From Schmidtea polychroa (taxonomy: Eukaryota): a stretch of DNA of 64,000 nt. Made by a program: the position numbers and the translations under genes. How positions within the stretch are numbered: the first letter of the stretch is position 1; every line of letters starts with the position of its first letter. Shown here in pieces: positions 25,868-64,000 of this stretch. The notes under the pieces are model-generated. The model made no database searches and was not told the DNA's origin. It saw only the letters and a program-made list of their open reading frames with translations. The DNA lies in assembly GCA_044892525.1 (NCBI GenBank), contig CM097885.1, forward strand, positions 14,820,001 to 14,884,000, in the 5' to 3' direction.

Positions 25868-25923
25868 GTAATTTTGATATTGATGTAAATATTGGTCGTA
25901 ATAATTTTAATAATGTAAATAGT

Positions 25924-26036
<113 letters not shown>

Positions 26037-26347
26037 ATAATGTAGAACCTTTATGTAATAAAATTTGTAATTTTAAAAAGTTTCCTTTAAATAATTTTAA
26101 ATGTTATAGTTATTTTAATGCTGATCGATCTTTAATAAATAATAATAATAATCCTAAGAATCAAGAAGAGTATAATGAAACTAAAGAAGCAGAATAAAAT
26201 AATAAAATAGTAAATGAAAAAGTTTATAAATTTATTAAAAAGGCAGAAGATAAATTAGAGAGAAAGGAAATTGGGTGGATTAATGAAATATCAGAGGAGC
26301 AAAATATTTTCACTAAAGATGAATGGAAACGACCGAGTTATGACAAA

Positions 26348-29046
26348 ATGCAAGGTAGGCCGAGTACAAATCTTGAAATTCAGGGCTATAGAATGGAATG
26401 CTTACTAGATACAGGAGCAAGAGTAAATGTAATGGCAGAAGCAGTTGTGGAAAAATTAGTGAATGTGAAAATCATAAAAACAGATGAGATGTTAAGATGT
26501 GCAAATGATAGTAAATTAGAGACAATCGGAAAAATAAATATTGATGTTAGAATTGGTAATATGGAAAGAGGAGAAAATAAATGCTGCTATAAAAAATTTA
26601 GAAAATAATGATATCATAAGAAGATGTAATTCACCTTGGAATACGCCGTTAGTATGCGTGTGGAAAAAAGACAAAAAAGATATCAGACTTTGTTTAGATT
26701 TTAGACAGCTTAATAAGATTACTGAAAGACAAGCTTTTCCTATGCCGAATGTAGAAGAAATTCTAGATACATTACATGGATCTAAGTACTTTAGTTCTAT
26801 AGACCTTGGGAACGGTTATTATCAAGTGAAATTGGACATAGAATCGCAAGAAAAGACAGCATTTTCTACTAAAGAAGGGCAATTTTGTTTTAATAGAATG
26901 CCTTTTGGCATTGCGGAAGGACCGGGTACATTCCAAGAATTAATGACAAAATTATTGAAAGATCTATGGAAAGAAGGAGTTATGGTGTATTTAGACGATA
27001 TTTTAATTTTTACAAGAACAATTGAAGAACATTACAATGTGTTTGGAAAGGTTCTAGAGAAAATACGGGAAGCTAAATTGAGAATCAACCCAGAAAAATG
27101 TCAGTTATTAAAGAGCGAAGTAAAGTTTTAGGGCACATTATTAACAGTCAGGGGATTCGGACAGATCAAAGTAAAATTGAGGCTATTAAATCATTTCAGA
27201 GGCCTAAGTGTATAAAGAATTTGAAAAGCTTTTTAGGTATATGTAACTATTATCGGAGATTTATTAAGGAATATGCAACAAAATCAAGAGCGCTAGAAAG
27301 CATATGTGGAAGCAATAGTGAAAAAATAATCTGGACTGAGGAATGTGAGAAAGCTTTCGAAGAAATGAAAATGGCGTTGACTACAGCGCCAATTCTCGTA
27401 TTGCCAGATTTCAAGAAAGAATTCATATTAGATACAGACGCAAGCTTTGATACAATTGGAGCTGTATTATCACAAAGAGATGAAATGGGGCATGAACACG
27501 TTATTGCATATGAATCCCATGCAATGAGTAACCATGAAAGAGGATATTGTATAACACGAAAAGAGCTTTTGGCTATATATTATTTCTGTCGCCATTTCAA
27601 CCATTATTTATACGGTAAACGGTTTGTTTTGCGCACTGATCATAAAGCAATAACTTTTATGTTAACGACAAAGAAGCCGATAACAGCACAGTTCCAAACG
27701 TGGATAAATTACTTGAGCAGTTTAGACATAAAAACGGAGTTCAGAAAAGGTACGGCGCATACGAATGCAGATATGCTGTCTAGAAATACATGCGGCAAAT
27801 GTGTACAATGTTTGATGGACCATGATAACCCCAAATCAGGGCGATTAAAAACTAAATTGTTAACATTGATGACCTAAAATAATGGAAATGAATGGCAAAT
27901 AGATAATGCAGAAATACAAGATATAAAAGATCAAATAAATGAAAGGAAAAATAATAAATATATATTAAAAGGAAATATTATCTATACCAATCAAAACAAA
28001 ATATGGATACCAGAAACAAAAAGACGAGAAATGATTAAGGAAACACATTTATTATTATGCCACGCAGGTGTAGAAAAACTTATGAAATATATTAGGAACA
28101 ATTTTTATATGGAAGATTTGCTAAATGAAGTAAAAGAGACTATTTCAATATGTGAAGCATGCCAGAAAAACAAAGTTTTAACTACAAAGTCAAAAGAAAA
28201 AACCCAAGTAATTCAAGCTTCAGAACCTATGGAGAAAATATACATGGATATTTGCGGTCCATTAAAAGAAACCTTCAGAGGAGAAAATATATTTGTGCAA
28301 TAATCGATCATTACAGTAAATACATATCTCTAACTCCTATTAGAAAGCAAGATGAAAATACAATAAAGGCAGTTTTGTTAAATAATCGGATATTGAAATT
28401 TGGAGCTCCTAAGGAACTACATGTTGATTGTGGAAAGAATTTCGAAGCAAATAGCATTAAAGAACTAGCAAAGGCAGCAGGAATTGAGTTGATATTTTCG
28501 AGTCCGTATCATCATAATACTAATGGTGTAATTGAAAGACAATTTCGTACTATAAGAGACTATATTAAAGCGTCACTCAGAGAAGGAGTTAAAAAAAGCT
28601 GGGCAGAATTAATACCTGATATAGAATACGTTTTAAATGCGACAGCTCAAAAAACTACTGTAGTGAGTCCAGCAGAAATTATATTTGAAAGAAAGATTAA
28701 TAGATCGCAATGGCATAGTAATAATGAAGTGGATAGAAATGAAATCATGCGGAAATTAGAGGCTAAAAGACAGCAAGCGAAATAAATTGGCACTAGGAAC
28801 TTAGAAGTGGGGGACAAAGTATTGGTGAAACAAGAAATTAGAAACAAAGATCACGAGAGATATGAAGGACAATACACAGTAATAAAACGAAATCATGAAA
28901 GAAGTTACTTATTAACAGAAGAAAACGGGAGGAAAATAACGAGAAATATAGAAAAGTTAAAGCATTTTAAAGAAGGGGGATGTAAGGAGTTAGTAAATCT
29001 CTATATAAAATTATTATGGTTAAATGGTAGAAGTGAGATCAGTTAG
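26348..29046 (+). pseudogene. pol: Disrupted pol (PR, RT, RNase H, integrase) of element A
   Basis: LLDTGA, YLDD, DTDAS...RKELLA and the integrase core are split over several frames; apparent deletion between PR and RT near 26570. Confidence 0.92.
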
Positions 29047-34394: not shown

Positions 34395-37300
34395 TTAAGG
34401 AACTGCCCATCTCTTAAGCCATTCAATTCGTCTGAGTTTCTTTGTTGTCCCGTCACTCAATTCCACCTGGTGCTCTGACAAAAACTTTGATATGACAAAA
34501 GGACCTTCATACTGTAGTCCATCTTTGTCGCGATTTTGTGGTTCTTTCCGAACTAATACTTTCTCCCCCACCGTGAAACATCGATTCGTTCTCTTCTCTG
34601 TTTCCATCTCTTTAATTCGTTTAGCTGCTTTCTCACTGTTCTCTCTTACCAATCTATGTATCTCAACTGTATCCAATGTCGTCTGAGGCAATGTTGAATG
34701 AAGGTTAATCTTCCTCCCAAAAACAATTTCAAATGGAGAAAATACCGTCGCGCTCTGTTGTGTCACGTTGATACAAAATTATACTCGAGGAAGTAACTCC
34801 GCCCAATTTCGCTCTCCTAGTCCACCTGCTAATGATGTTGCCAGCAAGTCTCTGACTGTCCGTATTGTTCTCTCAACTAAACCGTTAGATTGATGCTGAT
34901 ATGGTGAACTGAACTGTTGCGTAATACCCAGTCTTCATAGATTTGTTTTCATAATACCACTATCGAAGTTCTTCCCTCTGTCTGAGAGACAATTTCGCGG
35001 TTTTCCGAAACGGTATATCCACTTCTCCAATATGGCTTTGAAAATCGATCTCTCGTCTTGTCTCTCCAGTGCGGTCAGACTGACCATTTTGCTAAAACGA
35101 TCAATGATAACTAGCATATACCTGTACACTCCACCATTCTTCATGTGTGCTATATCAATGACCAACTGCTCTAAAAATTCTGAACTTATTATCGGCAACA
35201 ATCGTTCCTTTGTCTTCTCCTGCATTATTTTCCTTCTGCAGCATATCTCACATACTCTCAAACAGTTTTGTATAGTTTCTTGCATGTTTGGCTAAAAAAA
35301 TATGTTGCTCATATAGCTAATTAATTTCTTTACTCCAATGTGACACATTTCAGTATGTATTCCTTTAACTAACGTATTTGAGTAGTCTATCGGCACCAGG
35401 ATGAAATCTTTACCATTCTTCTCTAATAATAAAAACTCATCTTCTAATTTTATGTTGTTATGCAAATTGAAAGGAAATTTCTTTTTATTCAAGTCATTTT
35501 TTCCTCTTCTCCCTGTAACACTCTTGTCATGTGAATGAAATCTACATCATCTTGTTGCTTTTCTAAGAGTTTTGTCATCGACTCAGTCTTCTGTAATGAG
35601 CTGATATGTCTTACTCTGGCTTTTTCTTCTTTTGCGTCTTCATGTCTAGTCTGGCATTGTGCACATAACATCCCTTTAATCCTTGATATTCCGTCCGCAT
35701 TTCCATGTTCCTCTCCTTTCCTATATTGAAGATCGAAATCATATCCGGAAAGGTTGGCTAGCCAGGTTTGAAATTGCGGGCTTATCGGTTTTTTTGTGTA
35801 TCTCATGAAAACCAACGCCTTGTGATCCGTTCGTACTACAAATGACTTTCCGTATAGATATTGTTTAAAATACATTACATATTCGTGTATAGCAAGTAAC
35901 TCCTTCCTAGTCACACAATAACCTTTTTCATGCGCGGTCAAGTGTCTCGACCCATATGCAATTACCACTTCAGTACCATCTTCTTTAGCTTGACATAAAA
36001 CTGCTCCGATGGCCCCAAAACTAGCGTCTGTATCCAGAATAAAGTTTCTATCCATTCTTGGGTAATCTAGAATTGGAGCTTCACACAACTTTGTTTTAAG
36101 TAATTCAAAACTATTGTTGCAATCTTCTGACCAATTAATCTTTTTCTCACTGCCGGACGTAGCTGCATGTAGAGGTTCCGCAATTTTCGCATAGTCTTTT
36201 ATAAACTTCCTATAGTAATTGGTCATACCTAAAAAGGATCTTAATTGTTTGGCGCATACTGGTATTTCTGCATCTTGAATCTCTTTAATCTTCTTGTCGT
36301 TCGTTTTTATCCCACTTGCACTTATAGTGTGCCCTAGGAATGTCAATTCTTCTTTATACAGATTACATTTTTCTGGGTTAATTCTCAACCCCGCTAGTTG
36401 AATTCTTCTGAATACTTCCTCTAATCGGTTATTGTGTTCCTCTTTGTCTTTTCCATAGACAAGAATGTCGTCGAGGTAGACAACAACACCCTTAAATAAT
36501 ATTCCATCCAACATTGAGTGCATCATTATTTGAAACGTCGCAGGGGCGGTTGCTAGTCCAAAAGGAAGTCGGTTAAAACAAAACTGTCCTTGCCTTGTAC
36601 TGAATGCCGTGACCTCTTGAATTTCCTTCGCCATTCCAACTTGATAATATGCTTGACCTAGATCGATGGATGTGAAATATTTTGAATCTGCCAGACAATC
36701 CAGTAGAAATCGTGTATCTGGCATTGGAAAAGATATCTTTTCAGTGATCGCATTCAACCCTCTATAGTCGACACACATCCTTATTGATCCATCTTTCTTA
36801 GTCACAATCACTAGTGGCGCGTTCCATGCACTTTTGCATTTTCTAATAACTCTCGCTTCTAATAAGTTTGTGACAAGTTCGTCAAGCTTTTGTTCTAAAT
36901 GCATTGGTTGTCTTCTTGGCTGTAACATTACAGGCCCACCTACTATATTCATTTCATGTTGAACAACTTTCGTAAACCCGAGATCAAACGTTGAAGCCAT
37001 AAAAATACCTTTGAACTTCCGTAGCAATATGCCTAACTGTTCATTCTTCCCGTCTCCAAGCATTAATAATGCTTTTTCTTCTAGTTGTGAGTCCACATAT
37101 GTCCTCCCTACTTGTGACGCTTCAATATTGTCTACCTCTACCAGTCGAATACCAAATCTCTCCATTGTATCTACACCCCCAATGAAATCTGGACGTATAT
37201 CTTTGACAACTATAACATTAATAATTCTTTTTTTCCCATTCCAATCGGCTTCTATCGTCATTGCTCCTAACGGTCTTTCCATTCCCGTCGAAAATACTCC

Positions 37301-37474
37301 ACAAAGAGAAATTGTGCTCTGCTTCAACCTCGGTTTCCCAATCTTTGTCCAACTTTTTTCACTCATAACTGATACTGACGCTCCAGAGTCCCAAAGCATG
37401 TCAATCGCCGTCATGTTTATTACAATCTTACTCCACTTTCTTCTGTCTGTCGTCTCATACATCTTCTGTATCAT
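34395..37474 (-). pseudogene. pol: pol of element B: PR-RT-RH in one ORF, integrase frameshifted
   Basis: LWDSGA, YLDD and DTDAS in 35489-37474; integrase split across 35292-35492, 34935-35285 and 34395-34766. Confidence 0.92.
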
Positions 37475-37621
37475 GTCTTCATTTCGCTTCTTTCTACTGA
37501 TTATTGTGTCGACCCCACTGACGAAATGAAAGCAATGGGATCGTCCTTGTTTTTTGGTTTATCCATTGATTTTTTTATCGTTTCTTCGTAATTACTGTAT
37601 AAATCTTCTGTGAAATCACCA

Positions 37622-38749
37622 TTATTTCTTTCGTGATCTTCTTTCTAAATACATGCCACTCTCTTCTGATATCCTTTTTCTATTTTTAAGCAAAAAACAA
37701 TCTCTGAATCGATGACCTTCTTTTCCACAGATTAAACATTTGTCTTTCATAGGACATTCAAAACGCCGGTGCCCTTTTTCTCCACAACAAAAACACTGAC
37801 CTGGTGTCAGTTTCACTGGATGAGGCGAATCTCTTCCTTTGCTGTCATTAAATAACCTTCTTGCAATATCTTTAAGCGATACTGTAGGTATTCTTCTCTC
37901 TGGTTCTCCTGTCTCGTATCGTCCTCTATACCGCTCATTTTCATTCTTGTCTTCATTTACAATTGGTACAAACCGACCATTACCAGGTCTATTCCTCTCA
38001 TGATTAATCTCTCGGTGTTCGTCACGTTGATGTGCAGTTGTCTTCACAATTGTTCTTTGGTCTCGTCTACCCTCGAATTTACCATTTTTCATCACTGATG
38101 CGTAAGAGTCTCTTCTTATGGCATCAATATTGAATTTATTGTCATTCGTCATCTCGATCTTCTCCTGAATTTTTGCCATATCCCTGGCATCTTCAAAACT
38201 TGTCACTTTCCCTGATAAGAATATTTCTTTTACTCTATCGTCTTTCGCTCTGTTAGAAATAATGTCTCGAACAATCTGTTCATCAGACATTCCAGAGCTA
38301 AATACACTTTTAACTAAACTTCTTACTCGTATTTCGAAGACTTGGAATCTTTCATCTCTCTCTTGCTGAATTTGAGCTAGTTCCACAATCTTGTTAGTAA
38401 TGGTTTTCCTTACTGTAAAAGTTTCTATAAACCACTCTATTGCCATTTCATCGGTCATCTTCGCTATTTTCGCCGCTTCCCATAACATCGATGCCGCATC
38501 TGTCAACAAAAGATCCAATGCGTTTACTAGACTTTGATCTTCTATTCTCAGCCATTCCATAATATCCTTTAGCCAAAGTTCGGCTTCAGATTCAACTTTT
38601 CCGTCAAACTTTCTGACATTAAAATTTAGCATCTCACGTGCTTGTTTTGACAAGGAATCTAACATATTCTTAGTTCCTTTCTTTTTTCCTATCGCATTGA
38701 TTTCCTTGGCATGGTCGCCAGTTATGATGTCTTCAACTTCTAAATTCAT
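37622..38749 (-). CDS. gag: Gag with two CCHC knuckles (element B)
   Basis: CFCCGEKGHRRFEC, CLICGKEGHRFRDC. Confidence 0.9.
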   Translation of the reverse strand: MNLEVEDIITGDHAKEINAIGKKKGTKNMLDSLSKQAREMLNFNVRKFDGKVESEAELWLKDIMEWLRIEDQSLVNALDLLLTDAASMLWEAAKIAKMTDEMAIEWFIETFTVRKTITNKIVELAQIQQERDERFQVFEIRVRSLVKSVFSSGMSDEQIVRDIISNRAKDDRVKEIFLSGKVTSFEDARDMAKIQEKIEMTNDNKFNIDAIRRDSYASVMKNGKFEGRRDQRTIVKTTAHQRDEHREINHERNRPGNGRFVPIVNEDKNENERYRGRYETGEPERRIPTVSLKDIARRLFNDSKGRDSPHPVKLTPGQCFCCGEKGHRRFECPMKDKCLICGKEGHRFRDCFLLKNRKRISEESGMYLERRSRKK

Positions 38750-38885
38750 AAAATCAATAAATCAATAATAAATGCAGTTAAAATAAATTTTCCAAAAACA
38801 CGCTAAAAACAATATTATTAAAACAAACAACTTTCCATAACTATTTTGAAATCAATAAAAAATTATTAGGGATTAATGGAATTAA

Positions 38886-50555: not shown

Positions 50556-50996
50556 TAGGGCATGGTTCGATTAATCGGTTAATCGATAAATTTATATATG
50601 GTTTGATTAATCGAACAATTTCTAGCTAAGTTAATACGATTTAACAAGCTCTGAAAAACAAACTTAAATTGAAAATCGAAGCTTAGGAACGATTTTCTTT
50701 GTCTTTAGATGAGTGGACTTCAAAACGCAATCATCGATATATCTGTCTAAATATTCACACCAAAGATAGATGTTTTTGGGCTTGGCACGATAAGAATAAA
50801 AGAAACCATGCCAGCAGCCAAAGCAGTTGAAATTGTAGAAAAAAAATTAAGCGAATATGACATTATTTTGAAAAAGCATATAGTGGCAGTTGTGACAGAT
50901 GGCGCCTCTGTAATGAAAAAGATGGGTCGTTTGATGTGTATTTACCATCAAGTTTGCCACAGCCACGGAATACATTTGCCAGTTGTAGACGTCCTT
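50556..50996 (+). mobile_element. hAT transposase fossil interrupted by the Maverick
   Basis: SLDEWTSKRNHRYICLNIH and IVAVVTDGASVMKK...CHSHGIHLPVVDVL, broken exactly at 50996. Confidence 0.8.
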
Positions 50997-51303
50997 AGTG
51001 TGTATCTATCCCTAACGACCACAAGCCTCCCAACTGTTTTCATGTTTTATACCTATTTTTTTCCCGTTTTATACCTATTTTTCCCTCATAAACGTAAAAA
51101 AAACACTTAAAACCTTAAAAACCTATATCTTTTAATTTCTTTATTCCGAAGACATTTTGCTTTCAAAATAAAAACTTAAAAAACAACAAAAATATTAAAA
51201 AAACAACACAAAATGTTAATAAAACAGGGAAAAAAAATACTGATAAAACTATGAAAAACGTTTGTCGGCTTGCGGTCGTTAGGGATAGATACACACTACT
51301 TGC

Positions 51304-51450
51304 AGGTCGCCAGTTTATCAAGTCGCCAGTTTATCAAGTCGCCAGTTTATCAAGTCGATAGTTTGTCAAGTCGATGATGCAATCGCTGCGGTCTTGGCAA
51401 GTCGACAGCTTGGTAAGTCGACAGCTTGGCAGGTCGATAGCTTGGCAAGC
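51304..51450. repeat. Maverick subterminal 16-bp tandem repeats
   Basis: AAGTCGCCAGTTTATC variants (about 4 copies) then AAGTCGACAGCTTGGC variants (about 3 copies). Confidence 0.85.
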
Positions 51451-51610
51451 TGCTAGAATATAAATATAAAAAAAATAAAAAAAAAATAAAAATAAAAATA
51501 AAAAAATAAAAAAAATAAAAATAAAAAAAAATAAAAATAAAAATAAAAATAAATATATAAAAATTTAAAATTTAAAAACAACGTATCCAGTAAAAAAATT
51601 TTTTCTAAAA

Positions 51611-54600
51611 ATGAATTGTAATATTTGCAATAAAGTTTTTAAAAATAAAACAGGATTAATTTCTCACTATAAATCGAAAGCTCACTTACTAAAAGAAAAT
51701 AATCTTAATGACACAAATTCAAAAGTTTGTACTAAATGTAAAGGAAGATTTCTACATTCTGGATATAATAAACATTTTGAAAATTGTATCGGGAAAAATA
51801 GAGAAATATTTACATGTCCTCATTGTAACTTTTCAACAAAACTAAATTTCTATTATTTAAGACATTTAAAAGAATGTAAAAATAAAAAACAAAATTCTGA
51901 CGTTGAAGAATGTCATTCAGAAGGAGAACCTGATCATGTTGAAAGAGAAAAATACAACTGGGATGATTTTAATCATATAGATGAATTTCAATTAAAAATT
52001 AATGGACCTGCAACCCCTGGAGAATATATAAGGAGAAATAAAAAAAATATTAAAAATTCTTTCACTGAAGCTTTAAAAAATTATAAACCAACAAGGTATA
52101 ATGTTATAAAATATAAAATTACAATCAAAGCAAAATATTGGAGAGGACCAGAAGAAAAGACAACTCCTTTAGATGTTGAAATTGGAATACCTTTTAAATA
52201 TTTATTTTCAACTAGAGGATTTAATAAAAGCATCAAAGAAATAATTCAAGCAGTAGAAGCAAAACAAGAAGAGGTTGAAAATGAATTAGGAGATTCAAAC
52301 TTAGTATTCAACTCTTTCCAAACTTTAGTGATTGATTATTGGAGAGGATTACCACCTAATCCTAAATCTTATATTCAAACACCCTTTAGATCTAGAGTTG
52401 TTATAAATGTACAGAATAAGGATAACAAATGTTTCATGTGGTCAATACTTGCATATTTACATCCTCAAGCTGAAAACCCTCAAAGAGTTTCAAAATACAA
52501 ACAATATGAAAATGAATTTATATTTCCCAAGGGATTCACACACCCAATGAAACTAGAAGACATTCCAGAATTTGAAAAACTAAATAATCTTAAACTTAAT
52601 ATTTATGAACATGTTAAAGGATGGGGACATGGAAGGAAAGATATTATTCCAATTTATATTTCTGATAGTGATAGCACGAGGGAGATATATCTTTTAATCT
52701 TGGAAGAAGGAAATAATCAACATTATGTTTTAATAAAAGACTTTCAAGCTTTTACATCACCAGAGAATCCAACTAGTGGAGGAGGAACATGTAAAAGATG
52801 TCTTCATTATTCAACAACTAAAAACTCTATGATTAAACATGCAAGATTTTGTGAAAAAGATGATCCAGCTTTAATTAGAATGCCTACAGATCCCAGGATG
52901 TATTTTAAAAACTTTTCAAATTTATTACAAACATTAGGAGTTGTCTATGGAGACTTTGAATCTATAAATCGTAAACAAGATATAATTATGCAATATTTAA
53001 AAATAATAGAAAAATATAAACTCATGGATGAATGGAAAGCCTCTAAACAGAAGATGAAACCAGAGAGGATGAAAGCCTTTCTAAGAAAAAGAAATAAACC
53101 TAATAGTGTTAAAAAAACTAAACAATTACCATCTGCTTATAAATTATTATTTAAAAGTAATTATCCTGAACTCATAGAATCTAGAGAATATGCATTTCAA
53201 GGAACTTCAGAAGATGTTTTAAATCATTTTACTAAAAGTATAAATGATCTAGAACATGAAATATTTAAAATATTAAAAACAAAGTATCCTCAAAAAATTT
53301 CTAATCAACAACAACAAGAATATGAAAATACTTCCAACTGTTGGATGTGTAAACAAGAAATTCTTCCTGATGATAAAGTTATAGATCACGATCATTTAAA
53401 AAAGGAAAATAATTATCGAGGAGCAGCCCATAGAAATTGTAATCTTAATTGTCATACTCCTAAATTTGTACCAGTTATATTTCATAATCTTTTTGGTTAT
53501 GACATACATCTATTTATTAAACATTTAGCAGAAAATGCTAAAAACTCTTTCAAAGTTATAGGACTTACAAAGGAAAAATATAAATCAGTTGAATATGGAA
53601 AATTAAAATTTATAGACTCGTTAAACTTTCTCCAAATGTCTCTAGATGGAATAGCTAAAACAATGAAAGCAGAAAATTTTAAAATCACTCGAGAATTCTT
53701 GGAAAAAAATAATATCCCCCCAGAAGAATATCCTACATGCTTAGCAAAAGGAATATATCCCTATGACTATGTTGATTCATTTGAAAAATATAATGAAACA
53801 AAATTACCAGAGAAAGAAGATTTCTATTCCCAACTTCAAAAATCTCATATTACAAATCAAGAATATTCTCGAGCAAATAAAATGTGGGATCTTTTCAACT
53901 GTAAAACTTTAGGAGAATATACAAGTATGTACTTATCCCTAGATGTTTATATTCTAGCAGATTGCTTTGAAGAATTTACAAAGTCTTTTGTTCTTAAACC
54001 TTATAATTATATAACAGCTCCTTCTTTAGCTTGGGATACTATGTTATATACCATTTGGACTTCAGATCTTCCAGAATCTGATAAAATTATAGATCTTTTA
54101 ACCGACCAAGATATGTTTAATCAAATTAAAACAAACATTAGAGGAGGAGTATCTTCAGTAATGGGGAATAGAGAAATAAAAGCTAGAAATGCAATAACTA
54201 CTAGCCGAAGAATCTCTAAACACCCTGATCCATATATAAAACTTAACAATGAGGAACTAAAAGAAGTATTAGAAGGAATGAAAAATCCTCTATTTATACT
54301 TTATATAGATGCAACAGCTTTATATTCAGGAATTATGACTCAATATTTACCAATGAGTGACTTTCATGAAATATATCCTCCAGAATGCCCCTCAGAAGAA
54401 TCCTTAAAAGACCTTATGAAAGAAATACGTTCAACTCCTAAAGATTCTCCAATAGGATACTTTGTAGAATGTGACCTCGACTACCCAGATGATATAAAAT
54501 CAGGAACAAGACATTTCCCTTTAGCTCCTATAAGAAGAAAGATTGATATCAACGAACTTTCTGAATGGCAAATCTCACAAGATAAACCTCCAACAATGAA

Positions 54601-55930
54601 ACTTCTTTGTGATCAAACAGATCGAACTTATTATCTTTGTCACTATAGACTCCTCCAGTTTTATCTTTCACAAGGAATGATATTAAAAAAAGTTCATAGT
54701 GTCATAAGATTTAAACAAGCAGCATTCATGAAGACTTTCATCGAGGAGAACATTCGTTGTCGAAACATTGCAAAAAGAGAAGGTAACCTTTTAAAAGACA
54801 ATAATTATAAACTTTTAAACAATTCAGTCTTTGGGAAGACAATGGAGAATGTTGATAAATATACTCATATTGAACTCCTAACAAATACCCCGAAAGATAT
54901 AGCCCGTTATAATCGTATGCTAGGAAAGCCTACATTTAAAAACGCACAAGTATTTTCTGAAAATCTTACTGCAGTAGAACTAAAGAATTATGAGAAAACA
55001 TATAATAAACCAATATTTATTGGCTTTGCAATTTTAGAACTTTCAAAATTACAAATGTATGAAACATATTATAACATCTTACAACCTATATATGGATCGA
55101 ATATAGCAATGCATGCAATGGATACAGATTCAATGTTTTTAACAATAAGAACTCACGATTTACAAAGTGATATCTCTGAAAATCCTATACTTTCAAATTT
55201 AATAAATTCATCTGGAGAATTATTTTCGTTTAAAGATGAAAAACCTTTTACTCCTATAGAAAATGGAATATTTATTCGTGCTAAACAATATTCATATGAA
55301 ACATTTACAAATCCTAAATTTGAAGAACATACATTTATATTTAAAACCCCAGAAACAGAAGAAAGCATTACACATAGATATCCTATATTCCCTAAAGGAC
55401 CTGACGGACAGGGAGAAAAACCTGTAAAGGATAACAGATGTAAAGGAATTCAGAGATGTGTAGCAAAGAATCTTTCTCATCAAGATTATATAGATACATT
55501 GAATCCAAATCATAAAGATAAAATTGATGAAATACATCAACTTAAAAGTGAAAAGCATGATATTTACTTGATAGAATCCCAAAAAGTATCATTATCAAAT
55601 TATGATGATAAAAGATTCATACTAAGTGATTTAAAGACAACTCTTCCTATAGGAAATAATTTAATACCGATAATAAAAAATCTTGCTAGTTTGAATAAGT
55701 TATATGATACAAAGATTACTGATCTTGATATTTATAATGTTGAAATCATTTATCCTGAGAGAATTGAGAAACCTTTATATTCTCAAGTTTTTAATCCTAT
55801 ATGTTTAGAACTTAAATATTTTAATACTGATCCTGAATATATAAAAGGTCTAAGTGATAAAGAATTTAAAGATCATAAGGAGGTTCTAAAAACTAATTTC
55901 GAAAAGTTAACATCAGATTCTATCAAATGA
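51611..55930 (+). CDS. polB: Protein-primed family B DNA polymerase with N-terminal zinc fingers and an endonuclease VII-like insert
   Basis: Exo motifs GDFES, FHNLFGYD, YLSLDV; pol motifs YIDATALY, KLLNNSVFGK, MDTDS; CWMC...DHDH...RGAAHRNCN. Confidence 0.95.
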   Translation: MNCNICNKVFKNKTGLISHYKSKAHLLKENNLNDTNSKVCTKCKGRFLHSGYNKHFENCIGKNREIFTCPHCNFSTKLNFYYLRHLKECKNKKQNSDVEECHSEGEPDHVEREKYNWDDFNHIDEFQLKINGPATPGEYIRRNKKNIKNSFTEALKNYKPTRYNVIKYKITIKAKYWRGPEEKTTPLDVEIGIPFKYLFSTRGFNKSIKEIIQAVEAKQEEVENELGDSNLVFNSFQTLVIDYWRGLPPNPKSYIQTPFRSRVVINVQNKDNKCFMWSILAYLHPQAENPQRVSKYKQYENEFIFPKGFTHPMKLEDIPEFEKLNNLKLNIYEHVKGWGHGRKDIIPIYISDSDSTREIYLLILEEGNNQHYVLIKDFQAFTSPENPTSGGGTCKRCLHYSTTKNSMIKHARFCEKDDPALIRMPTDPRMYFKNFSNLLQTLGVVYGDFESINRKQDIIMQYLKIIEKYKLMDEWKASKQKMKPERMKAFLRKRNKPNSVKKTKQLPSAYKLLFKSNYPELIESREYAFQGTSEDVLNHFTKSINDLEHEIFKILKTKYPQKISNQQQQEYENTSNCWMCKQEILPDDKVIDHDHLKKENNYRGAAHRNCNLNCHTPKFVPVIFHNLFGYDIHLFIKHLAENAKNSFKVIGLTKEKYKSVEYGKLKFIDSLNFLQMSLDGIAKTMKAENFKITREFLEKNNIPPEEYPTCLAKGIYPYDYVDSFEKYNETKLPEKEDFYSQLQKSHITNQEYSRANKMWDLFNCKTLGEYTSMYLSLDVYILADCFEEFTKSFVLKPYNYITAPSLAWDTMLYTIWTSDLPESDKIIDLLTDQDMFNQIKTNIRGGVSSVMGNREIKARNAITTSRRISKHPDPYIKLNNEELKEVLEGMKNPLFILYIDATALYSGIMTQYLPMSDFHEIYPPECPSEESLKDLMKEIRSTPKDSPIGYFVECDLDYPDDIKSGTRHFPLAPIRRKIDINELSEWQISQDKPPTMKLLCDQTDRTYYLCHYRLLQFYLSQGMILKKVHSVIRFKQAAFMKTFIEENIRCRNIAKREGNLLKDNNYKLLNNSVFGKTMENVDKYTHIELLTNTPKDIARYNRMLGKPTFKNAQVFSENLTAVELKNYEKTYNKPIFIGFAILELSKLQMYETYYNILQPIYGSNIAMHAMDTDSMFLTIRTHDLQSDISENPILSNLINSSGELFSFKDEKPFTPIENGIFIRAKQYSYETFTNPKFEEHTFIFKTPETEESITHRYPIFPKGPDGQGEKPVKDNRCKGIQRCVAKNLSHQDYIDTLNPNHKDKIDEIHQLKSEKHDIYLIESQKVSLSNYDDKRFILSDLKTTLPIGNNLIPIIKNLASLNKLYDTKITDLDIYNVEIIYPERIEKPLYSQVFNPICLELKYFNTDPEYIKGLSDKEFKDHKEVLKTNFEKLTSDSIK

Positions 55931-56648: not shown

Positions 56649-57659
56649 TTAAAAAAATAAGACTTTATTCTTCTGAGCACCATCTGGCACCAATACTCGG
56701 ATATCAAAAGAAACTCTTGTTGAGAGAATGTCTTTATACAATTCCATCAATGCTTTACGAACTTCATCAACATCAACCTTTTTTTCATAAAATATTAAAT
56801 CTATATATTGTACAAGTGTGCTTTTAAAAATAATATTCTTACTTTTAACTTTATGTAGTCCATGTGAATGAGTATTAACATACCAATCTCCGTGTGGTAA
56901 ATCATAACTAGTCATTATAACATCACCCTTTTCAAGCTTACTATTATAATCACATTTCACAAACCATTTCATTCTTTCATTATCATCATCAAACAAAAAG
57001 AAATAAGGATCAATAATCTTTACAACCATAAAAACACTCCATTCTTTACTGTTTGTTGTTATTAAACTTGGTTCTATAAAATGTTTATATGTATGGGGTA
57101 ATAATGTTTTATTCTGTTCTAATTCAGCAGCTCTTTTTCTAATACTATGTGTGGTGTTAATGTGTGTTCCATGAGACTCTAAATTTGAAATTCTTTTATT
57201 AAATGATGTAATCATCTCATTTATTATATTATATATTGTATTAAATTTAGTATTCATAATTTGTTTATCTTTAGAGTTTAATATGGTAGTATTTAACTTT
57301 ACAACTTGTTCAGTTAACAGACTTTGTAACTTGTCAAATTTATCATTAAATTGTTGTTCGATATTATTAAGCTTTGATTCCATTGAATCCATTTTTGTTG
57401 TTAATGAACTTTCAATTCTTGTTGTTGTTAAATCAGTATATTTTTTAACACCATCTACATATTTCTTATTAACTGCATCAGCTTCATCAGTTGGAAAAGA
57501 TAATTCTTTTATCTTGTGTCCATTTAAAATTAAATCACCCTTCATTGAATCACCTCTTTCATTAATATATTTATTTTCTGTTAAAGTTAATATTTCTTCT
57601 GTATTAAACCCTGTTTTTATTGTTCCACCACCTCTATTACATGGAATATAAGAACTCAT
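56649..57659 (-). CDS. Fibre/spike-like protein
   Basis: GDSMKGDLILNGHKIKELSFPTDEADAVNKKYVD tail-fibre-type motif, then a heptad coiled coil and a globular C-terminus; adjacent to penton. Confidence 0.65.
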   Translation of the reverse strand: MSSYIPCNRGGGTIKTGFNTEEILTLTENKYINERGDSMKGDLILNGHKIKELSFPTDEADAVNKKYVDGVKKYTDLTTTRIESSLTTKMDSMESKLNNIEQQFNDKFDKLQSLLTEQVVKLNTTILNSKDKQIMNTKFNTIYNIINEMITSFNKRISNLESHGTHINTTHSIRKRAAELEQNKTLLPHTYKHFIEPSLITTNSKEWSVFMVVKIIDPYFFLFDDDNERMKWFVKCDYNSKLEKGDVIMTSYDLPHGDWYVNTHSHGLHKVKSKNIIFKSTLVQYIDLIFYEKKVDVDEVRKALMELYKDILSTRVSFDIRVLVPDGAQKNKVLFF

Positions 57660-57696: not shown

Positions 57697-58467
57697 TCAA
57701 ACCTGTTTCAAATGTAAATACATTGAAATCTCTTCTCCATTAAAATCAATCAATTCTCCTTCTTGATTAAGAATTTTAAAATTAATATCCATTATATATT
57801 TTCTACATAAAGGTAAATAATTTGGAGGATTCATTCTTTCAACTATTTTATATCCCATAGGAACTGTGTTTGAGGGAAAGGAATATAAAACATTTGTTTG
57901 TTTACCATTATTATAAAAACCAGTTATACAATCGCAATGAATATTTATTGTGTTTGTATTTATTATTTTTATAATATTTTCTGATGTTATATTCTCAACT
58001 ACAGGTGTGATATAATGGTTTCGTGTAAATCCTAAAATTGTTCTAAAGAAACTATTATTTTGAAAATGAATTCCTATATTCTCTAAAGTCATTATACATT
58101 TTGAAGTTGGTAAATCCATTTTAATTTTAATGACTCCATTTGTTTTTTTAGAAAGTATATTATTTAAATCTTTTATCTCATAAGCTCCGGGTTCGATTGT
58201 TATTATAATCTTATCTGTAGATTTTGGGCTTATATAATAAAATATGTTATTATCTTTAGTTATATTAAAAATAGTATTATAAGCACAAAACCATAATAGT
58301 CCTAATTCATAATTTAAATTTTGATCTAATTTAATTGAATCTTGAAAGTTTATAGTAAAGTCTGATTCTTTTGAATTTATAGATAAAGTTCTTGAATATT
58401 TATCTGACATTATGTTTACCATTTTTTTTAAATTATCTTCCGGAAGGTTGCGAAGCTCCATTTTCAT
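57697..58467 (-). CDS. Minor capsid protein (penton)
   Basis: INIHCDCI...VLYSFP...YLPL...ILNQEGELIDFNGE; true start may be a downstream Met. Confidence 0.85.
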   Translation of the reverse strand: MKMELRNLPEDNLKKMVNIMSDKYSRTLSINSKESDFTINFQDSIKLDQNLNYELGLLWFCAYNTIFNITKDNNIFYYISPKSTDKIIITIEPGAYEIKDLNNILSKKTNGVIKIKMDLPTSKCIMTLENIGIHFQNNSFFRTILGFTRNHYITPVVENITSENIIKIINTNTINIHCDCITGFYNNGKQTNVLYSFPSNTVPMGYKIVERMNPPNYLPLCRKYIMDINFKILNQEGELIDFNGEEISMYLHLKQV

Positions 58468-58895
58468 AGTATAGATTTTAAATCATTATAAATTTCTTGG
58501 ATTAAGGAAGTGAAACCTTCTCCTTTGGATTTATTCAATCTATACAAAACATATAAGCTTAAAATACCACATATTTTAGTATTATTAGGTTGAACTTGTA
58601 AAGAATTAAAAGTGTAGTCCGAGAGATAGTCTTCAACTTCTTTAGTGGGTTTAATCCCAAAAGAATCAAAGTATATAGATTTATTATATATACAAACCCA
58701 ATGAGATCCTTTTTCATTTGAATTTTGATAATTTATAATGATATTCTTTGGAGTGTCTTCTTTCAGACTCGACAATTCATCATTCATTAATATTTTTATT
58801 TTTAAATTTAAATAATCTGCATAATCTTTTAAATCAAAATTTGTTTTTGTATTTATTCCAAATGTTTTTAAAAAATCTAATATTGAAGGAGTCAT
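58464..58895 (-). CDS. Adenain-like cysteine protease
   Basis: GSHWVC, YFDSFG and Q...CG catalytic motifs. Confidence 0.9.
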   Translation of the reverse strand: MTPSILDFLKTFGINTKTNFDLKDYADYLNLKIKILMNDELSSLKEDTPKNIIINYQNSNEKGSHWVCIYNKSIYFDSFGIKPTKEVEDYLSDYTFNSLQVQPNNTKICGILSLYVLYRLNKSKGEGFTSLIQEIYNDLKSIL

Positions 58896-58917: not shown

Positions 58918-59715
58918 TTATAACTTCGTATACTTATTAAATTTATCTTTTGAAATTATTCCTTGTTTTAATAGTTCTTTAGAAATCTTTAAAATATCAG
59001 AATCTAAATTATTATGTCCTGCTTTTTTAGCTGCTAATAGTTTTCTTAATTCAATAAAAAGATTGATTGGGTTTATCTCCTTACCCTTTCCCTGGCCCTG
59101 ACCCTGGCCCTCTCCTTCTGTGACAATATAACCCCTTTCATTTTTATTTAAATATTTCTTTAAATCTTGAATATGTTTTGCTTTAGCACTACCATGTACT
59201 AATTCTATTAAATTTAAATATTTTTTAATTTCTAGAAGATCAACATTCTCTGAGGGATATCCACAAACTAATCCATAAAAATCATCTGTAAATTCAAAAT
59301 CTAGGTGTTTAGTATTATAAACATTTTGTGAATGAATACGTGATTTATTTTCTGAATTTAAATATAACAGAAAGTCATGTTTATTAATTGTTATTATTTG
59401 ATATCCTTCAACATTAATATTAAATGTAGGTTTAATTGTTTTACTTAAACTCACATTAATTTTAGGATCAAGTATAAGAGGTTTTATATTTAAATCTTCC
59501 AACCATGGTAATTCTTTTAAATCTTGTTTATCTTCCAACTCTTTAAATTTTAAAACTTCTAACTCTTTTATGGCTTTAATTGTTGGTCCTTGTTGTTGTT
59601 GGATTACCTCATTTAATATTATAGATTCAGCGTGTTGAGTTGTATCTTTTTTATTATATTTATCTTGTTCTGATTGTAATTTTTTTAAAAGTGCTAATCT
59701 TTCTTCATATACCAT
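58918..59715 (-). CDS. Conserved Maverick protein of unknown function
   Basis: C-terminal LRKLLAAKKAGHNN...ELLKQGII resembles a motif recurrent in Polinton proteins. Confidence 0.7.
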   Translation of the reverse strand: MVYEERLALLKKLQSEQDKYNKKDTTQHAESIILNEVIQQQQGPTIKAIKELEVLKFKELEDKQDLKELPWLEDLNIKPLILDPKINVSLSKTIKPTFNINVEGYQIITINKHDFLLYLNSENKSRIHSQNVYNTKHLDFEFTDDFYGLVCGYPSENVDLLEIKKYLNLIELVHGSAKAKHIQDLKKYLNKNERGYIVTEGEGQGQGQGKGKEINPINLFIELRKLLAAKKAGHNNLDSDILKISKELLKQGIISKDKFNKYTKL

Positions 59716-59737: not shown

Positions 59738-60262
59738 TCATTTTGGTAAAGGATCCGTTGGAAAGGGCTTCAAGTATAAACCTTTACCATTTTTAATTTT
59801 ACAAAGACATCCATTTTTTAAAGATTTACATATTTTTTTTAAATCATCTTTATCTTTCGAAGATAAAGATTCAGATGTAGAAATTTGATTTTTTAAAAAA
59901 TCATTTAAACCACGACCTTTATAAGGATCAAGATAAAGACCTTTCCCTCCCTTCATTTTCTCGATTTCAGTTTGTAGTTTTTCTTTTTCTAGGTCTGTCT
60001 TTTGAGATTCTTTAGCTTTTTGAACTGTAGTTGCAATTCCTCCAGCTATTCCAGCAGCACCTGATAGTCCGGCAATGATTGCAGGTATTAAAGCAGCTAA
60101 TGGAAGAAAGCCACCTTCTTTAGCTTCGTGGAGCTTCGCTCTAACTTGTTCTTTTACATGTTTTCCAATAAAATATTTTTTACCAGAGATTACTACTGAT
60201 TTATTCTTGTCTGAATTTATTAATTCTTGCAAAGATTCCTCTGTAGGGTTTTGTGTTGTCAT
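59738..60262 (-). CDS. Adenovirus pX-like core/membrane-active protein
   Basis: EGGFLPLAALIPAIIAGLSGAAGIAG resembles the pX segment GGILPLLIPLIAAAIGAVPGIA; three GxGL motifs. Confidence 0.7.
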   Translation of the reverse strand: MTTQNPTEESLQELINSDKNKSVVISGKKYFIGKHVKEQVRAKLHEAKEGGFLPLAALIPAIIAGLSGAAGIAGGIATTVQKAKESQKTDLEKEKLQTEIEKMKGGKGLYLDPYKGRGLNDFLKNQISTSESLSSKDKDDLKKICKSLKNGCLCKIKNGKGLYLKPFPTDPLPK

Positions 60263-60277
60263 TTTATAATAAATAAA

Positions 60278-61081
60278 ATGGATATTTGGAAACCAATTTT
60301 AAATAGACATAAGAGTAAATTTAATAATAAAGTATTTCCTGATAATTTTAGATGCTTAATTATTGGATCTTCTGGATGTGGAAAGAATGTTCTTCTTTTG
60401 AGGATGTTATTAGAAGATGGTTTTTTAGATTATAATAATTTAATCTTTTATTCTACAACCATTAACCAACCAGAATTACAACTTTTGAAATGTGGATTTG
60501 AAAATAAATTAACTAAAAAAGCTATAATTGATATTTTTAAAAATCAACATACATATCCTGAAGAAGTTTTTCAACCTTGTGATATGGTTGATTGGTACAA
60601 GGAAAAGATTTTAGAATCAGATATTAGTAATAAAAATGATTACATCTGTGAAGATGAGGGGCAGAGGGAGGGTTATGGGATTAGAGTTTTATTCTCTAAT
60701 AAACCTGAAGATGTTTTGCATTGTGATTTACTTCCTAAAGATAAAAAGAATCTAGTTATATTTGATGATGTTGTTAACATGAAAAATCAAGAGATTCAAA
60801 AGAGTTACTTTACACGAGGTAGACATAATAATTGTAATGTTATTTATATATCTCAAACTTATTATGCTTTAGATAAAAACTCTATAAGAAATAATTCCAA
60901 TTGTTTTATATTTTTTAAATTAGATCGTCGAGATAAGAATATGATTTATAATGACTTATTTTCAAATGTTGAACCTGATAAGAATATGTTTGATATGTTT
61001 GTTGATAATCATTGGAAAGAAAAATATAATTATATTTATTTGGATAGAGAAGAAGCTGAAATATGGAAAAGTTTGTTTTAA
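60278..61081 (+). CDS. A32/FtsK-like genome packaging ATPase
   Basis: Walker A GSSGCGKN, Walker B LVIFDD, RGRH arginine motif; ATG at 60278 (MDIWKP) preferred over the track start. Confidence 0.92.
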   Translation: MDIWKPILNRHKSKFNNKVFPDNFRCLIIGSSGCGKNVLLLRMLLEDGFLDYNNLIFYSTTINQPELQLLKCGFENKLTKKAIIDIFKNQHTYPEEVFQPCDMVDWYKEKILESDISNKNDYICEDEGQREGYGIRVLFSNKPEDVLHCDLLPKDKKNLVIFDDVVNMKNQEIQKSYFTRGRHNNCNVIYISQTYYALDKNSIRNNSNCFIFFKLDRRDKNMIYNDLFSNVEPDKNMFDMFVDNHWKEKYNYIYLDREEAEIWKSLF

Positions 61082-61096
61082 CTTGTTTTCTATAGT

Positions 61097-62476
61097 TCAG
61101 AAACTAGTTTTCTGTAGTTCATTATTATAAAATCTACCTAATATTTTTTCATTATTTAAATCGATGATACCATATGTTATTGGAGTTGTATGATGTATTT
61201 TATTTATAATAAAAATTTCATTTGTCCATTTTGCTGTGAATCCTTTTTCAAATTAATTTTTATATTTAAATATTCTTACGCGGTCACCAATTTTAAATTT
61301 TGGTTTTTCAAAAACATTATTTTCAACATTTACCACTTTAACTGTTTCAGGATTCAAGGAAGCATTTAAAGGTGTTGATTTTATAGAACTATGTACATCA
61401 TTATTATATTCATTTACAATCTTTTGTAACAATTCATTGTTCCATTTTTGTTTTCCAATAGCAGTAAAATATTTCCACATTTTATTTTTTAATGTTCTAT
61501 TTAATCTTTCAACCACAACTGCTTTTCCTTCGTTTTCTGTTGAATATAATTTAATATCATTTTCATTTAAAAACTTTGTAAAAACTTTGTTATAAAATTC
61601 TGTTCCTTTATCACACCATAAATATTTTGGAATTCTTTGATATTCTTCAAATATATTTTCAAATGCTTCTGTAATAGAATATCCTGTTTTATTTTCTAAA
61701 CACCTTGCAAAAGCAAATCTTGTATATAAATCTATTACTGTTAAAATTATTTTATATTTTTCAGGGTCTGATGATTTGGGCATAAAGACTAAATCAGCAG
61801 ACCATGTTTGATCTTTTTCATGTACTTGAACTTTTAAATATTTTTTATTTTTTCTAAATTCATGGTGTAATTCGTTGGCATATTTTATTTCTGATTCTGT
61901 TGGGGTTTGTAAGGGTTTATTCTCAAAGAGTTGATTCTCAAGGGATCTTTCAACGTCTGCTTGTTCAATAATCCTTTTATTAGCAACATCTTTTGCTTTT
62001 CTAGGAAGTCCTGCTCCTATGAAAATCTTACCTTTCATGGCTAATTTAACTAGAGCTCTTTGAATCTTTTCCTTGCTTGATGGATTTTGGATACTATTTA
62101 AATCATGTATTAAATTCACATCTGCAACATGTCTATCTCTAAGATCTTCTGAGTTGTAAGCAATATCATGTTTTAAAGCTGCTTGATCAATTCTATTTAT
62201 TGGTTCTTCTCCTTGTTTAGGATTATTATTTTCATCTAATCTAATATCTAATCTTGTTCCTGGTCCAGTATAGTTGTGATGGAATAAATGTCTTTCACCT
62301 GGATATTTTTCAGTAGTAAAGGGTTTTAATAATGTTGATGTTGTTTTTAAAGATTGAAGATCACCTCCGGCTGCTAGTTTAGATCCAAGTATATGTTTTT
62401 TAGTTTTAACATGAGAGGCTTTGTGATGTCTTGTAACTTGACAATGACAAGTTTCACATGTCCAATATTTACTCAT
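61097..62476 (-). pseudogene. Zinc finger-PLA2-rve integrase fusion with one in-frame TAA at 61253-61255
   Basis: CETC...H...H; YTGPG...DQAALKHDIAY; WSADL, CDKGTEF, VERLNRTLK; the frame continues FEKGFTAKWTNEIF...GRFYNNELQKTSF* past the stop. Confidence 0.88.
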
Positions 62477-62489
62477 TTTAAAAAGTTTT

Positions 62490-63788
62490 TTATGAAGAAG
62501 AATCACCTCGTACATTTTCAATAATTGAAATCTTTCCACCATATAATTTCATTTCTATTTTCTTTTCTTCTAATATTAATGTATATACTTTAGCTTTAAA
62601 ATTAGAATCCTTTGTTATATGAAGTGTAACATCAACATTATTTATGGCTAGGCGATCATCTTGGTCTGATACATTTATACAAAATATAGAATATAAATTT
62701 TTGAAATCTTCTAAACTTAATTGCGGCTCAACTTTGAAGTCGTGGCATGTTTCAATATAATTCAGGTACGGGAATATGTTTTCATTATTTTCAATATTAA
62801 ATTCCATTCGATTTATTGGATAATATGAACTATTCAATTGGACCTGGATGGTTTTTAAATTATCACCCCCAATCTTTTGAATAAACAAGTTGTTGTTCTT
62901 TTGGAAAGATGGATCTCCTTCTTTGAATCCAATCAAGATATATCTTGGTCGGTATGCTAGATTTGCTACCTTTATAGAATATGTTGAACCCTCTGTCATA
63001 CTAAATTCACTACAGATTCTATTTAAATAATTTACATTTATAGATTTGTTGGAATTTAATCTTTCAAGTAATTTAATTTCAGAATGTGGATTTAATGTCC
63101 ATTCAGGTATATGTAATTCAAGTGTTGATAATTTTAATTTAGCTTTTGTATCCTTATCTCCATAAAACAATCTTTTATCACCATCTAGTCTATTACAGAT
63201 GAATTCTATAAAAACATTATGAAGTATACGGTTATAGTTTTGAAGGAATCCGAACAAGTGTTTTAATTCAAAATAACCTTCAAATTTTTTCAACTTATAA
63301 AGTTCAACTCTTTTATAGTAAGCATAATTTATATCTAAACCATCTTTATCTAAATCCCCTTTATTAACATCAGGAATCCAACCTGTTAATTCACCATATT
63401 CGTTTTTATAATCACAACCAGTTAAAATAAAATTTAACATTGTAGAATATACTCCTGGATGCAAAACAGTTTCAATTTCTGATGATCCTAGTTTTAATCT
63501 CATGTTGGAGAATAAATTTGGAAAGAAATTATTTTCTAGGGTTATATCTTTGTTTGCTTCAATTTCTAATTCAATTTTATAATATAATTTGGCATTACAA
63601 ATATCTATAGGGTTTGATGTTTGAAGAGATTGAAAAACTATATCACCCCTACGATTTAAGTTTGCAATAGATCCTGAAGTTGGCGAGATTTTTAAAATAT
63701 CATTTTTCTTGATTTCATGAGTAAATTCTTTATTATAATCAAGATTTAATTTATTTTTTTCTTGAATTTTAAGATTTATATTATTCAT
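62490..63788 (-). CDS. Major capsid protein (double jelly-roll, hexon-like)
   Basis: 432 aa; NNFFPNLFSNMRLKLGSSEIE, LKHLFGF, RPRYILIGF, LNSSYYP and YSIFCINVS are typical of Polinton MCPs; genomic context. Confidence 0.85.
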   Translation of the reverse strand: MNNINLKIQEKNKLNLDYNKEFTHEIKKNDILKISPTSGSIANLNRRGDIVFQSLQTSNPIDICNAKLYYKIELEIEANKDITLENNFFPNLFSNMRLKLGSSEIETVLHPGVYSTMLNFILTGCDYKNEYGELTGWIPDVNKGDLDKDGLDINYAYYKRVELYKLKKFEGYFELKHLFGFLQNYNRILHNVFIEFICNRLDGDKRLFYGDKDTKAKLKLSTLELHIPEWTLNPHSEIKLLERLNSNKSINVNYLNRICSEFSMTEGSTYSIKVANLAYRPRYILIGFKEGDPSFQKNNNLFIQKIGGDNLKTIQVQLNSSYYPINRMEFNIENNENIFPYLNYIETCHDFKVEPQLSLEDFKNLYSIFCINVSDQDDRLAINNVDVTLHITKDSNFKAKVYTLILEEKKIEMKLYGGKISIIENVRGDSSS

Positions 63789-63824: not shown

Positions 63825-63909
63825 AACTCCGATAGCGCAGTGGGCTAGACTGGCACAGTGGTTCAAATGGATAGCGGTTCAAATCCTAACTACGGTTAGT
63901 TTTTTTTTT
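63825..63909 (+). ncRNA. Candidate Pol III type-2 small RNA (~80 nt), not a canonical tRNA
   Basis: A box TAGCGCAGTGG 63833-63843, B box GGTTCAAATCC 63876-63886, CTAAC-TACG-GTTAG hairpin 63886-63899, T10 terminator 63900-63909. Confidence 0.65.
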
Positions 63910-64000
63910 AACATAAAATAATATTAAAAATTTGAAAATAATATTGAAAATGGTGTGGGTATCTTAGATTTATATTTTATTTTATTTATTTTATTTTATT

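Follow-up and report, generated by a model that had tools for sequence, protein, structure and literature searches.

Adintoviruses carry a protein-primed family B DNA polymerase (pPolB), an rve integrase, an ATPase, a protease, a double jelly-roll capsid protein, a pX-like protein, and a parvovirus-type phospholipase A2 (PLA2), as far as the accessible portions of their description go (Starrett et al. 2021, PMC8502044), and the element described here shares all of these. According to the same portions, adintovirus PLA2 is fused to pX in a protein named PLA2X and the integrase has a gene of its own, whereas in our element pX stands alone (59738-60262) and it is the integrase, rather than the C-terminal pX-like domain of PLA2X, that follows PLA2. 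In the accessible parts of the literature, PLA2 genes of Mavericks are known both as PLA2X (PMC8502044) and as CAP (PMC5803895), and PLA2 is known in PLVs as well (PMC11296320, PMC3671162, PMC12220804, PMC4061559, bioRxiv 2026.06.19.733378). The adintovirus integrase has a C-terminal chromodomain in the available text of Buck et al. (2024), whereas the element here has none up to the end of the frame at 61097; a Chromo match is likewise absent from an open relative with 93% identity and is present in more distant fused relatives. The same text suggests −1 shifts for penton and for hexon-protease, and not for integrase.

Mavirus (Born et al. 2018, PMC6048507) also combines an rve integrase with a lipase-like hydrolase. 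In the part of that study available, both proteins are found in virions; the two are encoded by separate genes, the mavirus hydrolase is an alpha/beta enzyme and not a PLA2, and no frameshift is seen. In the literature outside Repbase, subscription papers, and bioRxiv supplements, neither a fusion of PLA2 with integrase nor a frameshift between them turned up, and genome maps in those three sources may show the fusion unremarked. The element is of a known kind, with a widespread way of expressing its integrase that has apparently not been described. On balance we lean toward a reading in which, taken as a whole chain, the integrase of this lineage is produced at the C-terminal end of a protease-matured virion-protein precursor, in a gag-pol-like manner.

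The element and its PLA2-integrase gene

A Maverick/Polinton occupies the final 13 kb of the window, by which we mean the whole 64,000-nucleotide stretch of Schmidtea polychroa DNA analyzed here, and includes genes for pPolB, protease, pX-like protein, A32 ATPase, PLA2-integrase, and capsid (Table 1). Its protein-primed pPolB, its rve integrase with D-D-E residues, and its module of capsid, ATPase, and protease identify it as a member of this class. The capsid, ATPase, protease, and pX frames are open, and the capsid-side end of the element seems to lie beyond the window. A Cys/His motif in the pPolB translation may represent the OTU-like N-terminal polymerase domain by which, among other traits, Buck et al. 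(2024) define adintoviruses, and homologs of the penton candidate adjoin capsid genes in related loci. The first-pass annotation had credited the element with a protease of its own, and the His-Asp-Gln-Cys motif at 58464..58895 bears this out; its family label, adenain-like, is our assumption, and the protein shares 37% identity (E 3e-13) with the protease part of a protease-integrase fusion (P0178). The neighboring ORF, presumably PZ-like, has five overlapping GxG motifs (GEGQGQGQGKG) directly ahead of a conserved C-terminal helix.

Table 1. Features of the element in window coordinates, with the basis for each assignment
Feature	Position	Strand	Basis or conservation
Protein-primed family B DNA polymerase	51611..55930	+	PF03175, E 1e-16
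Probable penton	57697..58467	-	label from size and position; without Pfam match
Adenain-like (presumed) cysteine protease	58464..58895	-	His-Asp-Gln-Cys motif; without Pfam match
PZ-like (presumed) ORF	58918..59715	-	run of GxG repeats
pX-like core protein, stand-alone, without PLA2	59738..60262	-	PF05829 below cut-off, E 8e-4
A32-like packaging ATPase	60278..61081	+	PF04665
PLA2-integrase ORF, 407 codons to premature stop	61256..62476	-	ATG 62476
C2H2-like zinc finger, CxxC...H...H	62393..62458	-	sequence
N-terminal Gly site GG-D, candidate protease site before PLA2	62360..62368	-	G 90/94, G 74/94, D 93/96
Parvovirus-type phospholipase A2 domain	62027..62302	-	PF08398, 34.3 bits (cut-off 23.9)
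PLA2 Ca-loop HNYTGPGT	62255-62278	-	sequence
PLA2 His-Asp, in DQAALKHDIAY	62165-62170	-	sequence
PLA2 second Asp	62120-62122	-	sequence
K-x-x-x-G-x-G motif ending PLA2 (KIFIGAGL), candidate protease site	62006..62029	-	first G 119/119, second G 96/119
Variable linker	61883..62005	-	motif-to-integrase spacing 48 residues here, 6 to 76 across homologs
rve integrase core	61256..61882	-	PF00665, 46.7 bits (cut-off 32.6)
Integrase D-D-E	D 61793-61795, D 61610-61612, E 61508-61510	-	D 120/120, D 120/120, E 117/118
In-frame stop codon	61253..61255	-	ends frame after 407 codons
Integrase C-terminal coding beyond stop, 51 codons, without chromodomain	61097..61252	-	same frame
Double jelly-roll major capsid protein	62490..63788	-	PF21738, E 8e-27

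Outside these 13 kb, the window consists of AT-rich eukaryotic DNA in which microsatellites and LTR-retrotransposon ORFs occur. Two LTR retrotransposons, at 24791-28785 (plus strand) and 34395-38761 (minus strand), have gag together with pol frames that are broken, and their paired direct repeats lie at 24541/28981 and 34262/38720. At 50996-51298, about 200 bases are enclosed by an inverted pair of 53-base sequences whose end letters are Polinton-like; adjoining this structure are a fragment of a transposase-like ORF (50808-51110) and tandem repeats of a 16-base unit (51303-51461). The ORF at 56649-57659 combines a coiled-coil with a short motif that also occurs in fiber-like genes of related loci. 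A tRNA-like unit at 63826-63910, upstream of the capsid gene, contains sequences resembling an A-box and a B-box and, after them, a run of T; ARAGORN made no tRNA call for it and Rfam gave no match at curated score.

In the first-pass annotation, positions 61097..62476 had been read as one ORF encoding a PLA2 fused to an integrase. The Ca-loop, the catalytic DQAALKHDIAY, the KIFIGAGL motif, and the D-D-E integrase do all fall in one minus-strand frame, and the two enzymes are joined in frame from the ATG at 62476. The frame is not open as far as 61097, however: an in-frame stop at 61253-61255 had been overlooked, 51 codons lie beyond it, and the integrase of the window copy is truncated. Another letter occupies the position of the stop in more than 99.8% of contig depth (runs X1 and X2), so the stop is either unique to this copy or a mistake in the assembly; because the 93%-identical homolog is also open there, we assign it to this copy. 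Among the matches listed for X1, X2, and X12, none has a frame-changing indel in the linker. A start at the alternative ATG farther upstream, at 62542, would bring the ORF into overlap with the capsid gene, which ends 13 bases upstream of the PLA2-integrase gene on the same strand, and the 93%-identical homolog begins at the 62476 ATG.

Both domain identities given in the annotation are upheld by Pfam scores above the cut-offs and, for the integrase, by a fold match. The predicted structure of the fusion has separate domains (mean pLDDT 84, pTM 0.57), with an integrase core that matches retroviral integrases (best E 2.4e-11). Integrase matches dominate the fold searches made with this model, with no PLA2 among the matches listed, and the PLA2 profile matches solved VP1 structures weakly (best E 0.13, 21 positions). 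Residues 32-47, around the GG-D site ahead of PLA2, have pLDDT below 50, and the C-terminal Gly motif is predicted to form a coil between two helices, right after helix 134-153. In this model, both Gly sites lie outside regular structure.

Fusion and Gly motifs across the family

A family search with the fused query returned 584 relatives, whose domains were called by profiles excluding the Gly motifs. The fusion is kept in 118 of the 120 best homologs and so withstands the refuting check that the annotation had set for it; a further 148 representatives (50% clustering) comprise 32 with both domains, 103 with integrase only, and 13 with PLA2 only, and the fused shares in both sets are inflated by the use of a fused query. 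The PLA2 catalytic residues are retained almost throughout (His in 112 of 114 rows, Asp in 113 of 114, second Asp in 116 of 116), as are those of the integrase, and since the catalytic residues of both enzymes are near-invariant, both appear to be under selection. We are virtually certain that the fusion is a real, selected trait of the family; its family-wide occurrence rules out an accident specific to one copy. The C2H2-like finger that the annotation placed ahead of PLA2 is present in this copy but occurs in 14 of 128 fused homologs, which rules it out as a family trait.

The sole named homolog comes from the coral Oculina, and in the Oculina fusion P0102 a PZ-like region lies ahead of PLA2. 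In P0150 and L038, PLA2 and integrase are separated by a long insert of about 230 residues, and in the in-frame fusion L027:99-1652 the last PLA2 helix is apparently duplicated, with two Gly motifs ahead of the integrase. P0211, P0236, P0238, and P0257 continue from PLA2 into non-integrase sequence without a C-terminal Gly motif, the extension in P0211 being a fiber-like coiled-coil region. Among 3273 candidates, a weak test, no fused form of greater length (714 to 2035 residues) appeared, and annotated phages gave no match.

The annotation had also proposed a protease site in a conserved Gly linker between PLA2 and integrase. A GG or GxG is found within 16 residues after PLA2 in 132 of 145 fusions and before PLA2 in 63 of 69, compared with 15 of 2202 background windows drawn from the integrase part; most of the 13 fusions without a match after PLA2 retain the first Gly only. 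The linker motif is therefore conserved, as expected, and the second candidate site, ahead of PLA2, had been missed. The motif is not specific to the fusion, however: it also ends PLA2 in 31 of 31 PLA2-pX proteins and is therefore a hallmark of the PLA2 module that did not arise for the fusion. The three GxGL motifs that the annotation counted in the pX-like ORF are more than shuffling predicts (3 vs. 0.35 expected, P = 0.0045), and the same protein has a GG ahead of a hydrophobic helix. Across 100 pX homologs, GxGL-type motifs number 370 against a shuffled mean of 71, and GG precedes a hydrophobic pair in 99. In protease-integrase fusions, a Gly motif lies directly before the integrase in at least 6 of 8, a count made without the L012 and L045 junctions.

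The consensus of the adenovirus protease is (M/I/L)xGG|x or (M/I/L)xGx|G in the available text of PMC4246237. The mavirus protease cuts GG|X and GX|G, with two GXG sites left uncut, and mavirus virions contain the integrase together with a hydrolase that is found as two fragments around GK|G, as reported in the accessible portions of PMC6048507; this is an experimental precedent for a packaged integrase and for a hydrolase cut near such a site. The adenain-type site of the annotation survives in its virophage form, a GG|X or GX|G motif being present at the domain border, but not in its strict adenovirus form, which is absent after PLA2 in this element and follows PLA2 in 18 of 148 sequences; the window copy has Phe at P4, and P4 is Lys in 79 of 132 homologs. 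From their sequence and placement, the Gly sites flanking PLA2 are plausible candidate sites for the element's protease. We propose that this cysteine protease would cut the Gly sites on both sides of PLA2, freeing both enzymes.

The fusion could alternatively stay uncut as one two-enzyme chain, with the Gly motif simply closing off the final helix of the PLA2 fold. The motif may simply end the domain, given that all 31 PLA2-pX proteins have it, that its first Gly is invariant and its second is not (Table 1), and that in the model it coincides with the end of helix 134-153, and the low count for the strict adenovirus consensus points the same way; yet matching motifs also occur before PLA2, throughout pX, and between protease and integrase, where there is no PLA2 helix to end. 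Moreover, P0211, P0236, P0238, P0257, and P0259, in which PLA2 has a non-integrase continuation, lack the motif, and the PLA2 domain may therefore not need it. We regard an uncut chain as unlikely and prefer a precursor matured by the protease.

Gene layouts and the −1 frame in relatives

Integrase-core pattern scans yielded 99 loci (19 viral and the best 80 of 507 metagenomic), 91 of which cover the integrase start, so that layouts were sampled from the integrase side only. Scans from the PLA2 side found one locus in viral contigs, on the same contig as L002, and none in genome contigs; a viral-contig scan with a single protein found none. PLA2 lies directly upstream of the integrase in 46 loci, with the integrase in frame in 14, in −1 in 25, in +1 in 4, and behind a stop in 3. 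The other loci comprise 5 with a protease in frame and 40 without adjacent PLA2. Integrase is thus linked in three layouts: in frame with PLA2, in −1 after PLA2, and in frame with protease. Among loci that are otherwise unbroken, 18 are in −1 and none in +1.

The −1 loci share several features. A Met upstream of the integrase core is present in 4 of 25, vs. 32 of 33 stand-alone integrases. Behind the Gly motif, 20 of 25 have an in-phase slippery heptamer, which occurs in 1 of the 14 in-frame loci and in 20 of 482 windows of background sequence. The commonest heptamers are A AAA AAC, A AAA AAA, and T TTA AAA. These in-phase X XXY YYZ sequences within the frame overlap were found in relatives only: the linker of the window copy has no slippery heptamer, which rules out a frameshift in that copy. 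The −1 integrases are 41 to 88% identical and form 18 clusters among 20. Their frame-0 product consists of PLA2, a GxG, and a basic tail of 4 to 27 residues. Five related loci conserve a 12-pair hairpin about 5 bases past A AAA AAC; all of its pairs are intact, one change is compensatory, and its loop varies in length by multiples of three, although this sample is small and the stem is also protein-coding. L058 has the same heptamer-spacer-stem layout, and a DNA pattern of the hairpin subfamily had no match in viral contigs.

In these relatives, a programmed −1 frameshift just past the Gly site would, as in gag-pol, yield PLA2 in quantity and PLA2-integrase as a minor product, while the lineage of the window would make the two enzymes one to one and other relatives would have integrase fused to the protease instead. 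The annotation's protease and particle proposals are plausible, and the apparent frameshift and protease-fusion variants of relatives give the strongest new support.

Because loss of a single base in an A-run likewise produces a −1 frame, these layouts might instead be deletions, by mutation or assembly error, or might contain short introns, leaving the in-frame fusion as the only functional form. In-frame sisters have KK or KN after the motif (10 of 150 fused proteins), sister pairs occur in both states (L044/P0091 and L089/P0111), 7 of the 25 loci have other breaks, and L002 is in −1 without a slip site, all of which fit deletion; however, 61 A/T runs of at least 6 bases (10 of at least 7) are unbroken in the coding stretches of the 18 otherwise intact −1 loci, a partly circular comparison in that the loci were chosen clean, and at the junction itself runs do not exceed 4 bases in 12 of the 14 in-frame loci. 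The conserved 12-pair hairpin in five loci also argues against decay. A frame-restoring GT-AG intron of at least 30 bases is formally possible in 15 of 25 loci but impossible in 10, which rules out introns as the general cause. Taken together, we consider deletions or introns quite unlikely to account for the −1 layouts.

The −1 layouts could also be programmed through polymerase slippage or ribosome sliding on A-runs, without tandem tRNA slippage and a stimulator. An A-run of 6 to 8 lies within 14 codons of the motif in 24 of 25 loci, L003 and L049 have A-runs but no canonical in-phase heptamer, and a downstream fold with z ≤ −2.5 accompanies 6 of 20 heptamer sites, the other 14 having no significant fold in a pseudoknot-free model. 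The hairpin subfamily and L058, on the other hand, have the classic heptamer-spacer-stem arrangement, and the phase of the heptamer is correct in 20 of 25. We rate slippage on A-runs as unlikely and favor a frameshift of the gag-pol type in these relatives.

A quick tree covered 72 of the 91 loci, with +1, stop, short, and edge-cut loci excluded, together with the window, 3 protease fusions, and 44 of 150 fused proteins. On this tree the −1 label requires 9 changes, linked integrases mostly cluster apart from stand-alone ones (SH-aLRT only 83 to 93), and the window falls inside a well-supported group of 24 in-frame rows. In L006:340-1371 and L007:471-1535, PLA2, pX, and protease share one stop-to-stop frame, whereas in their close relatives L005, L008, L010, and L011 the protease is a separate overlapping ORF; the shared frame is possibly another polyprotein or recoding junction.

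Proposed integrase delivery and comparison with known systems

Whether Mavericks and Polintons are true viruses is a long-standing question. An integrase tied to a membrane-entry enzyme, with maturation-type sites at the borders, makes most sense if it is carried in a particle. The PLA2 module would be packaged in the virion and serve membrane escape at entry, a role already proposed for Polinton lipases in the available text of PMC4642659, and the PLA2 part would carry the integrase into the particle, which would then be infectious. The link might instead be a compaction or co-expression device in an intracellular element, with PLA2 acting on nuclear or inner membranes or at exit and with no infectious particle. 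No virion has been seen for Maverick-Polintons, as stated in the accessible part of bioRxiv 2026.06.19.733378, and the host has very many diverged copies, a transposon-like pattern (2397 contigs in X1, 18086 in X2); against this, the element has kept its capsid, ATPase, protease, and pX frames open. The partners to which integrase is fused in the present sample are PLA2 or protease, plus the PZ-like region in P0102, and a frameshift giving less integrase than PLA2 suits particle stoichiometry. An exclusively intracellular role is in our view decidedly unlikely.

If the gag-pol-like strategy is correct, it would explain how integrase is delivered ahead of gene expression. It would also mean that many integrase genes annotated in Mavericks have been given the wrong start or mistaken for pseudogenes: in annotation, −1 loci resemble a PLA2 gene beside a start-less, broken integrase. 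A double-stranded DNA element with a gag-pol-like frameshift would clearly have converged with retroelements. The broader proposal, that a large Maverick/Polinton lineage has converged on the gag-pol solution, with integrase entering particles as a protease-cleaved extension of PLA2 or of the protease, both taken as virion proteins, and with repeated switching between in-frame and −1 arrangements setting the ratio, seems to us finely balanced, neither side outweighing the other.

Known virion proteins offer three points of comparison. In adenovirus pVI/pX maturation, as far as the available text of Mangel and San Martin (2014, PMC4246237) goes, a membrane-active virion protein likewise has Gly sites near both ends, and the frame-0 product of the −1 loci, with its GxG and short basic tail, resembles the IVGL|G site of pVI; pVI differs in not being a phospholipase and in having no link to integrase, and the adenovirus P4 rule is mostly unmet here. 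The PLA2 of the parvovirus VP1 unique region (PF08398) shares the Ca-loop, His-Asp, and second Asp with our domain, which scores above the Pfam cut-off, whereas the parvovirus enzyme is tethered to a capsid protein and our domain, when compared directly, resembles solved VP1 chains only weakly. In the Gag-Pol of retroviruses and LTR retrotransposons, integrase is the C-terminal part of a virion-protein precursor, reached in frame or by a −1 frameshift, and is freed by the protease. The present element differs in being double-stranded DNA, in its cysteine protease, and in its PLA2 partner, with neither reverse transcriptase nor Gag, and by analogy its likeness to Gag-Pol is one of strategy and not of descent.
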